Of a DNA stretch of 62,851 nt, positions 23,954 to 24,856 are shown piece after piece. Origin of the DNA: an uncultured bacterium (lineage in GTDB: Bacteria; Patescibacteriota; Patescibacteriia; Patescibacteriales; UBA12465). Position 1 is the stretch's first letter, and every line of letters starts with the position of its first letter. The stretch covers positions 1 through 62,851 of the forward strand of contig CAJAVM010000023.1 in NCBI GenBank assembly GCA_903945435.1. Reading direction: 5' to 3'. Under the pieces are notes generated by a model that ran no database searches, was not told the origin of the DNA, and worked only from the letters and a program-made list of their open reading frames with translations. Both the position numbers and the translations under genes were made by a program.

Positions 23954-24856
23954 TTATCCCGCATCTATCAAACTGTTGCCATTCATCAAATTATTTTTTT
24001 CAATTTCTAATAAATCTAAAATAGTTGTCGCTATATCAGCTAAATTACCAGCTGGTTCCAACAAGCTTAAGTCCCCGTCAGGAGCATCTTTCAGGCCTAT
24101 AGTTTTACCTTTAAATTCTTGACCAATAATAATTAGAGGGACTGGATTATCGGTAATGTCTTTATCTAACAAATCTGTAACCATATCTTTCATCCTTTCT
24201 GCATTTCCATGAGTAGAACTAACAATCAGAATACCATGCCTATCAAGTATTTCTGTTGCTAAGCGATACAGAGCCTTATCAAGCGCTTCAGTAGCTTTGA
24301 TGGTTGTAGAAACATCAAAGGAAGAGGCTGCTAAATCTACAATAGGAGAAGCAACAATAATTAAATCATAATTATTATTTTTAATTGCTTTTAAAGATTC
24401 TCTAATAATTCTTTTTAAAGATAAAAAAATGTCGAAAGATTGATTATCGTTTTTTGCAGAAACAGAAATCCAATCTTCTCCCATAAGCTTCTCCTCTCTA
24501 TGGCCGTTAAAAAAACTAGTCAAGGCCACTAAACGTTCACTATCAAAAATCTTTAATTGCTTCAAACCATTATCTGAAATAATTTTTGTTAAATCGCTAA
24601 CAACATCTATATTCTCATCTTCGGTGCTTTTTCCAGACCCCAATCTTAAATATCTAGCATTCACGCTACCGGCTCCAGTTTCTAAAATTGCTGCTGGATA
24701 TTCTTTTGTAAGTTTAAAAAAATTAGGTGTTCTAGCTAAACTAATAGTATTAGCCTCCCCTGTCCCAGCAATCCCCCAACCATCAAGTAATAATAAAAAC
24801 ACTGGCTTAGGCCGTTTAGTCTGTAAGTGATCGTCTTCGCCGTCGTTATTTATCAT
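23954..24856 (-). CDS. iPGM (GpmI)-like protein, internally deleted and lacking catalytic residues
   Basis: LDGWG, A.TP, L..I.DSER..ALT.FFNG..E, HGNAE and NPVP are iPGM-like, but the protein is only 300 aa. Confidence 0.75.
   Translation of the reverse strand: MINNDGEDDHLQTKRPKPVFLLLLDGWGIAGTGEANTISLARTPNFFKLTKEYPAAILETGAGSVNARYLRLGSGKSTEDENIDVVSDLTKIISDNGLKQLKIFDSERLVALTSFFNGHREEKLMGEDWISVSAKNDNQSFDIFLSLKRIIRESLKAIKNNNYDLIIVASPIVDLAASSFDVSTTIKATEALDKALYRLATEILDRHGILIVSSTHGNAERMKDMVTDLLDKDITDNPVPLIIIGQEFKGKTIGLKDAPDGDLSLLEPAGNLADIATTILDLLEIEKNNLMNGNSLIDAG

Follow-up and report, generated by a model that had tools for sequence, protein, structure and literature searches.

Bacterial phosphoglycerate mutases (PGMs) of the GpmI or iPGM type (TIGR01307; solved structures 1EJJ, 1O98 and 5VPU) are the closest described relatives of the gene considered here, a minus-strand open reading frame (ORF) of 300 amino acids, uninterrupted by stops, at positions 23,954 to 24,856 of a 62,851-nucleotide stretch of DNA from an uncultured member of the Patescibacteriota (contig CAJAVM010000023.1 of assembly GCA_903945435.1; 'the window' below means this whole stretch). 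The product of this ORF, which we call the short protein, has the same phosphatase-domain fold as the iPGMs and clear homology to them, and its gene has the same operon neighborhood as the iPGM1 and iPGM2 genes of its relatives (our names for the first and second tandem copies after the phosphoglycerate kinase and enolase genes, pgk-eno; a distal full-length copy is called copy 3). Unlike the iPGMs, it has no transferase domain and has lost Ser62, H407, D444 and H462 (numbering of 1EJJ), its orthologs do not conserve H445 and D403, it carries an extra loop of 11-13 amino acids, and it coexists with a separate true PGM.

Three further groups of proteins provide points of comparison. In the cyanobacterial enzyme iPGAM (Synechocystis Slr1945) a lineage-specific loop of 17 amino acids replaces the TKKGI of the Geobacillus enzyme (mBio 2025, PMC12077085); this loop, joined by a ten-residue strand to the H462 equivalent, lies on the surface of the phosphatase domain, affects Mn affinity and sits beside the predicted contact with PirC (PMC12077085). 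The short protein resembles iPGAM in having a lineage-conserved insertion at the same site, after the strand that leads from the H462 equivalent (the loops were compared by published description), but iPGAM is full-length, active and regulated by PirC, its loop starts with EGE and follows another pattern, and no PirC-like partner is known in Patescibacteria. Like the STYX pseudophosphatases and other pseudoenzymes, for which binding, scaffolding and regulation are the expected roles (PMC5106787, PMC10211241), the short protein has lost catalytic residues while its fold and purifying selection have been kept; unlike STYX, it belongs to a different superfamily, has had a whole domain deleted as well, and has active, half-decayed and fully decayed stages coexisting in related genomes. 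The phosphopentomutase DeoB, the archaeal ApgM and PH0037 share the core fold and give weaker Foldseek and hidden Markov model (HMM) matches to the short protein, but they retain both nucleophile and metal site and bear cap domains of their own, whereas the short protein is nested inside the second bacterial iPGM paralog. Our literature search found no description of a transferase-less iPGM family, and there is no NCBIfam model for such a form; NCBI labels the members hypothetical, and JGI labels them iPGM.

The short gene descends from iPGM2, has lost the transferase domain and much of the active site, and is held by purifying selection. The function that we consider best supported (probability of about one in two) is a binding or regulatory one in lower glycolysis, which would depend on the loop and involve no catalysis. 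Judged from its residues, it would be a pseudoenzyme in the operational sense, namely an iPGM homolog without the catalytic residues that is under purifying selection.

PF01676 (Metalloenzyme) is the only Pfam domain matched in the short protein, with residues 17-287 aligned to all 252 positions of the model (1-252; E-value 5.7e-33, 114.9 bits, gathering score 24.3), and both the core alpha/beta fold and an HMM score above gathering place it in the PF01676 superfamily. It falls outside the iPGM equivalog family: TIGR01307 is matched in two separate stretches with only 119 bits (cut-off 330.65), NF003897 reaches 106.7 bits (cut-off 862), and the transferase domain, the Ser nucleophile and the full ligand set are all missing. 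When the protein is aligned to the iPGM of G. stearothermophilus (1EJJ), residues 16-65 correspond to 3-52 and residues 88-297 to 316-509, which leaves approximately 53-315 of 1EJJ without counterpart; the two halves of the phosphatase domain are joined, and a transferase domain of about 230 amino acids by this alignment (roughly 200 in the preliminary description of the ORF) is absent in frame. An AlphaFold2 model built from 36 homologs (pLDDT 88, the predicted local distance difference test score; predicted template modeling [pTM] score 0.89) has as its best Foldseek matches the iPGM structures 5vpu, 1o98 and 1ejj (TMq 0.81-0.83; 0.83 to 5vpu). We also considered a split enzyme whose transferase domain is encoded separately; this was ruled out by a profile search, which found no PF06415 (iPGM_N) anywhere in the 0.98-Mb, 97%-complete genome.

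Residues of the active site were mapped from the 1EJJ alignment together with an alignment to full-length paralogs. Three of the seven ligands of the two Mn ions in 1EJJ (D12, S62, D403, H407, D444, H445 and H462) remain in the short protein, as D25 (at D12), D174 (at D403) and H216 (at H445), whereas H407, D444 and H462 are lost to S178, T215 and I234, respectively. The Ser62 loop GNSEVGH reads GAGSV-NARY, with the serine deleted or replaced by V65 and with Y69 in place of H66, and K336 is changed to R108. Changes at the level of motifs are ETEK to DSER, DMVGH to DLAAS, ADHGN to STHGN, and HTxNPVP to ITDNPVP. The preliminary description had presented the ORF as an intact, iPGM-derived frame overlapping the enolase stop, in which the phosphoserine motif was replaced, the metal-ligand motifs were altered and the transferase subdomain was cleanly deleted; PF01676, the 1EJJ alignment, the uninterrupted frame and the residue mapping bear out each of these statements. 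Among orthologs, position 65 (the Ser62 site) is variously D, P, L, I, E, K or V, and because D174 and H216 are not conserved there, the remaining ligands are not under selection either. With such residues the protein is predicted to be unable to catalyze the phosphoserine/di-metal reaction of iPGM, in keeping with the earlier view of it as catalytically dead.

The short gene is maintained by purifying selection and is not decaying. A database search returned 666 homologs; the best 120 are all 284-314 amino acids long, have 47-78% identity and come from Patescibacteria named Falkowbacteria or Magasanikbacteria. An alignment query of a species-level genome collection added about 70 more genomes with the short gene, closed chromosomes and a genome of the window's own genus (Candidatus Falkowbacteria GW2011_GWF2_43_32) included. 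In the window's family (a Falkowbacteria lineage) the frame is open, at approximately 290-310 amino acids, in 54 of the 61 genomes. The ratio of nonsynonymous to synonymous substitution rates (dN/dS; pairwise Nei-Gojobori) is 0.03-0.17 for the short gene and 0.02-0.09 for the adjacent enolase, with dN(short)/dN(eno) of 1.1-2.3; dS is saturated (at least 1.4 and often not computable), so that the dN/dS values are approximate and upper-bound-like. A 900-nucleotide frame that stays open in dozens of lineages at dS of at least 1.4 is not unselected. Decay of the orthologs (dN/dS near 1, with stops), which would have spoken against the selection proposed in the preliminary description, was not seen; ratios are well below 1, frames are open, and length is constant in more than 70 species-level genomes.

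Within its neighborhood the short gene evolves fastest (47.5% identity to the same-genus ortholog, versus 64-81% for pgk, eno and gyrB); long branches also mark the short forms in the tree. It is absent from seven of the 61 family genomes (about 11%): in four of the family's genomes (G395, G401, G403 and G405) the convergent genes begin approximately 80-120 nucleotides after enolase with no remnant of the short gene between them, and one genus has lost it in three of three genomes. The function of the gene is useful enough to be selected, and it is dispensable.

The origin of the gene can be read from the arrangements found in related families. Two families (f4 and f105) have two full-length tandem copies, iPGM1 and iPGM2, after eno; in two others (f3 and f116) the second tandem copy is short; and in the window's own family (f1) only a short copy is left after eno, while many genomes carry the distal copy 3 in addition. 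In a tree of the phosphatase domain, the iPGM1 copies form a clade with support of 100, and the full-length iPGM2 copies together with the short forms form a clade with support of 89 (Shimodaira-Hasegawa-like approximate likelihood ratio test [SH-aLRT]), in which 24 of the 25 short forms cluster with support of 98. A single clade of all 25 short forms is not rejected by the approximately unbiased (AU) test (p 0.51), although long branches and a patchy species distribution qualify this result as a count of deletion events. What sets iPGM2 apart from iPGM1, copy 3 and the solved iPGMs is an inserted stretch (consensus EGK...DLSL; about 11-13 residues) that separates the NPVP strand from the APTIL helix, and the presence of this insertion in the short forms confirms their descent from iPGM2. 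The short protein agrees with iPGM2 in its position after eno or iPGM1, in its (E/K)GK...DL(S/T)L loop and in its placement in the tree. The short gene is the positional ortholog of iPGM2 in the arrangement pgk-eno-iPGM1-iPGM2; it is not the former mutase of this genome gone dead, but a derivative of the second tandem paralog.

Full-length iPGM2 itself has every catalytic and substrate-binding residue invariant. It is widespread among Falkow-, Magasanik-, Uhr-, Kuenen-, Buchanan- and Kerfeldbacteria (the NCBI names of the lineages), and a scan of the genome collection with the iPGM2 alignment gave matches in Patescibacteria only. Most of the sampled genomes of the class, at about 1 Mb, have two or three iPGM paralogs, two of them in tandem after eno and all with intact catalytic motifs (for example, G239 and G252); a 2010 survey had described bacterial iPGM paralogs as rare and linked to large genomes (PMC2964296).

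Short forms at several stages of active-site loss are found in living relatives. One (in genome G129) has GNSESGH, DIIAH, ADHGN and HT..PVP all intact; another (G337) has Cys instead of Ser and intact ligands; a third (G037) keeps the ligands and has lost the Ser loop. The short forms of family f3 read DLVAH and STHGN and keep only D403, H407 and H445. The window's family (f1) lacks the Ser nucleophile and most of the ligands: one subgroup retains the same three residues as f3, and in the window's genus D403 is retained and position 216 varies. Since transferase-less forms with an intact metal site exist, the domain appears to have been lost first, with the nucleophile and the ligands lost piecemeal afterward. 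The G129 copy (L051:6019-6954, plus strand; 311 amino acids) is not near eno; it lies directly upstream of a riboflavin kinase gene and a lumazine-binding (riboflavin synthase-type) gene. This homolog, with its nucleophile Ser and metal ligands all in place, probably has phosphatase activity, and it may conceivably be connected to flavin metabolism.

A conventional mutase is present elsewhere in the cell. Looking for a real gpmI or gpmA had been suggested as a check in the preliminary description, and the window's own genome encodes a canonical GpmA of 245 amino acids (NF010713, 360.6 bits versus a cut-off of 305). Of the 61 family genomes, 25 carry a distal full-length iPGM (with PF06415) and 35 an intact gpmA. 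In no case do the two occur together in intact form, and G426 (95% complete) is the single genome in which both are missing. Of the 54 genomes of the family with a short form, 53 also have a separate PGM, and two genomes of family f2 with only the short form (G016 and G356) likewise have gpmA. This strict alternation fits the known behavior of the two non-homologous PGMs (PMC2964296), and it shows that no mutase is replaced by the short protein. The interconversion of 3-phosphoglycerate and 2-phosphoglycerate (3PG and 2PG) in this cell would be carried by the GpmA encoded elsewhere and not by the short protein. A lineage devoid of any conventional PGM, which we had also considered, was rejected for this genome and this family by the same tallies. 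In one family genome (G412) a full-length iPGM stands beside a gpmA remnant with three stops (C3:20002-20319), apparently a PGM replacement caught in the act, and the gpmA of another (G336, C10:23397-24053) encodes 225 amino acids and lacks model positions 122-145.

What selection keeps in the short protein was assessed from windows of conservation computed over 25 short forms (five families or more), and from residues invariant among 29 family orthologs. Conservation is lowest in the window of the former nucleophile loop (residues 61-70; 0.34, versus 0.87-0.96 in full-length copies) and highest in the first strand (LDGWG), the insertion (residues 261-270) and the helix that follows it. N36, Y69, G217, E220, D262, L263 and S264 are strictly invariant in the family orthologs, and GKTIG is nearly so. 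The loop GKTIGLxxxxxxDLSLL is common to the short forms and full-length iPGM2 and is absent from iPGM1, copy 3 and the solved iPGMs. Judging from the order of secondary structures in the model (its topology) and from the paper on cyanobacterial iPGAM, this loop would be exposed at the surface, remote from the old pocket, where the strand beginning at the H462 position has its far end. Former active-site positions hold residues (N66, R68, Y69, K102, R108, D174 and N218) that are invariant in an alignment of 36 sequences from the window's own subfamily and genus. Across all short forms no Arg or Lys is conserved, which speaks against a universal phosphate-binding pocket.

These patterns suggest a course of events in which iPGM2 would already have used its specific loop for an interaction while still an enzyme. 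With catalysis taken over by another PGM, loss of the transferase domain, followed by that of the active site, would have become possible, binding would have been left as the sole function, and the short protein would survive as an adaptor or regulator, with selection preserving the alkaline-phosphatase-like fold plus the iPGM2-specific loop. Eno1 or Pgk, encoded in the same operon and presumably co-transcribed and translationally coupled with it, would be the most plausible partner, a pairing that the preliminary description had also put forward, and it is from the conserved operon position and this coupling that the proposal of a partner is drawn. We hold only tentatively the more specific version, in which the GKTIGL...DLSLL loop is the docking element for a protein partner, the short protein is a stand-alone adaptor or regulatory subunit (for example, on Eno1 or Pgk), and a moonlighting binding function has outlived catalysis. 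Several observations weigh against a binding or regulatory role of this kind. The short gene has been cleanly deleted in at least five family genomes that keep pgk-eno, so that Eno1 and Pgk do not need the short protein; the conservation of the loop could be structural instead of marking an interface; the main effect of the equivalent cyanobacterial loop is on Mn affinity (PMC12077085), which would serve no purpose in the short protein; the genus-invariant residues at the former active site could form a new ligand pocket; and the saturation of dS limits what the dN/dS values can carry.

The last but one of these points leads to an alternative that we regard as unlikely, namely that the short protein is still an enzyme or a small-molecule sensor. 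Its remodeled site (N66, R68 and Y69, where the nucleophile helix begins at its N-terminus; K102, R108; D25, D174; N218, E220) would bind a phosphorylated metabolite (3PG, 2PG or phosphoenolpyruvate) without a di-metal center, and would either sense that metabolite or catalyze a different reaction. In its favor, the site residues are invariant in the alignment of the closest subfamily and map to phosphate- or metal-contacting positions of 1EJJ, the family as a whole shows no variation at Y69 and E220, and the forms that lack the transferase domain and have an intact metal site (G129 and G337) are plausible phosphatases. With the exception of Y69, E220 and N36, however, the family varies at these positions (66 is S, R, N or A; 68 is R, N or S; 108 is K, R, Q or N; 174 is D, H, Q or G; and 218 is N, Y or H), other short-form families vary even more, the short forms taken together have no conserved Arg or Lys, and the nucleophile loop, at 0.34, is the least conserved segment of the protein.

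The other explanations are far less probable. That the short protein still contributes to 3PG/2PG interconversion, whether alone, with enolase or with a separate transferase-like partner, is suggested by its occupation of the PGM slot of the pgk-eno operon and by the JGI label of its relatives, but it is very improbable for a protein with no nucleophile and no conserved ligands in a genome with no transferase domain, and the gpmA or full-length iPGM found in every family genome but one would be needless if the short form did the job. An equally slight chance attaches to the idea that the protein is irrelevant and that translation through the ORF stabilizes or couples the pgk-eno mRNA, or that the ORF shields a downstream RNA element. 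The ATGA coupling to eno and the place of the ORF as last gene before a 313-nucleotide spacer would suit this idea; selection acts on the amino acids, however (dN/dS well below 1, invariant residues and an invariant loop), the fold is preserved, and in genomes without the short gene pgk-eno directly abuts the convergent genes. A relic in decay, a pseudogene too young to have acquired stops, would account for the fastest evolution of the neighborhood, the long branches and the seven genomes without the gene, yet it is already contradicted by a frame that stays open at constant length, with dS of at least 1.4, in 54 genomes of the family and over 70 species-level ones, by dN/dS of 0.03-0.17, by invariant motifs and by a confident fold prediction, and we give it almost no weight.

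The locus around the short gene is summarized in Table 1.

Table 1. Features of the short gene and of its operon, in positions of the window
Feature	Position	Strand	Evidence
Short iPGM2-derived ORF, phosphatase domain only, 300 amino acids	23954..24856	-	PF01676, TIGR01307, 1EJJ alignment, AlphaFold2, Foldseek
ATGA, enolase TGA overlapping the ATG of the short ORF	24853..24856	-	direct sequence reading
N-terminal piece of phosphatase domain, residues 16-76, with LLLLDGWG (D25 = D12 of 1EJJ) and remodeled nucleophile loop	24629..24811	-	
GAGSVNARY, residues 61-69, replacing the nucleophile loop GLPxGxxGNSEVGH	24650..24676	-	alignments
Short linker, residues 77-87, junction where 1EJJ ~77-310 is missing	24596..24628	-	1EJJ and paralog alignments
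C-terminal piece of phosphatase domain, residues 88-297	23966..24595	-	1EJJ and homolog alignments
iPGM2-specific inserted loop EFKGKTIGLKDAPDGDLSLLEPAG, residues 246-270	24047..24121	-	alignments with paralogs and solved iPGMs
Enolase eno1, 418 amino acids, upstream in the same operon, catalytic motifs present	24853..26109	-	TIGR01060, 517 bits (cut-off 300)
Phosphoglycerate kinase pgk, 391 amino acids, upstream of eno in the same operon	26121..27296	-	ORF list, profile match
HtrA-like gene, 387 amino acids, 5' side of pgk	27307..28470	-	synteny

The ATGA overlap is predicted to couple translation of the short ORF to that of eno. The neighborhood is conserved: regions of 13 kb from 20 relatives share a block of the HtrA-like gene (orf387), pgk, eno and one or two iPGM-like genes, facing convergent orf144 and gyrB. 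The order pgk-eno-short is kept in all 14 loci with the short form beside eno, eno adjoins the short gene in 30 of 30 loci of the window's family, and orf387 accompanies the pgk-eno-iPGM block wherever a locus of the order extends far enough upstream of pgk to cover its place. The short ORF is the last gene of the operon, and is followed by a spacer of 313 nucleotides (23641-23953), long for such a compact genome, and then by the convergent 144-amino-acid gene. In an Rfam search over 23500-24100, 6S was not matched and no score came close to gathering; the only hits were weak and terminator-like, at approximately 23620-23730, and scans for promoters and terminators gave counts no higher than in shuffled sequences.

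Two observations outside the operon complete the survey. The 0.98-Mb genome has a second enolase (G000:C8:96644-97879; L079:3042-4331, plus strand) directly after a pyruvate kinase of 342 amino acids; it has 44% identity to the operon copy and scores 592 bits with TIGR01060, so that both enolases are above the cut-off, and one family member without the short gene (G432) has only an enolase of this second type. In one large series of third-party assemblies, many metagenome-assembled genomes of Patescibacteria bear the title 'uncultured Gammaproteobacteria bacterium', which looks like a systematic mislabel.

For this family the true mutase step is settled as gpmA or a distal iPGM, in strict alternation, and HMM-based surveys of the Candidate Phyla Radiation (CPR) should leave the short gene out of their mutase counts; one such survey, on CPR metabolism, reported unexplained PGM gaps in shallow Parcubacteria clades (PMC7304191). 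Because the complete series from enzyme to apparent non-enzyme is alive in one paralogous copy, the order of events (loss of the domain, then of the ligands) is testable. The strongly conserved loop, placed at a known regulatory hot spot of iPGM, offers a concrete handle for the search for a partner.

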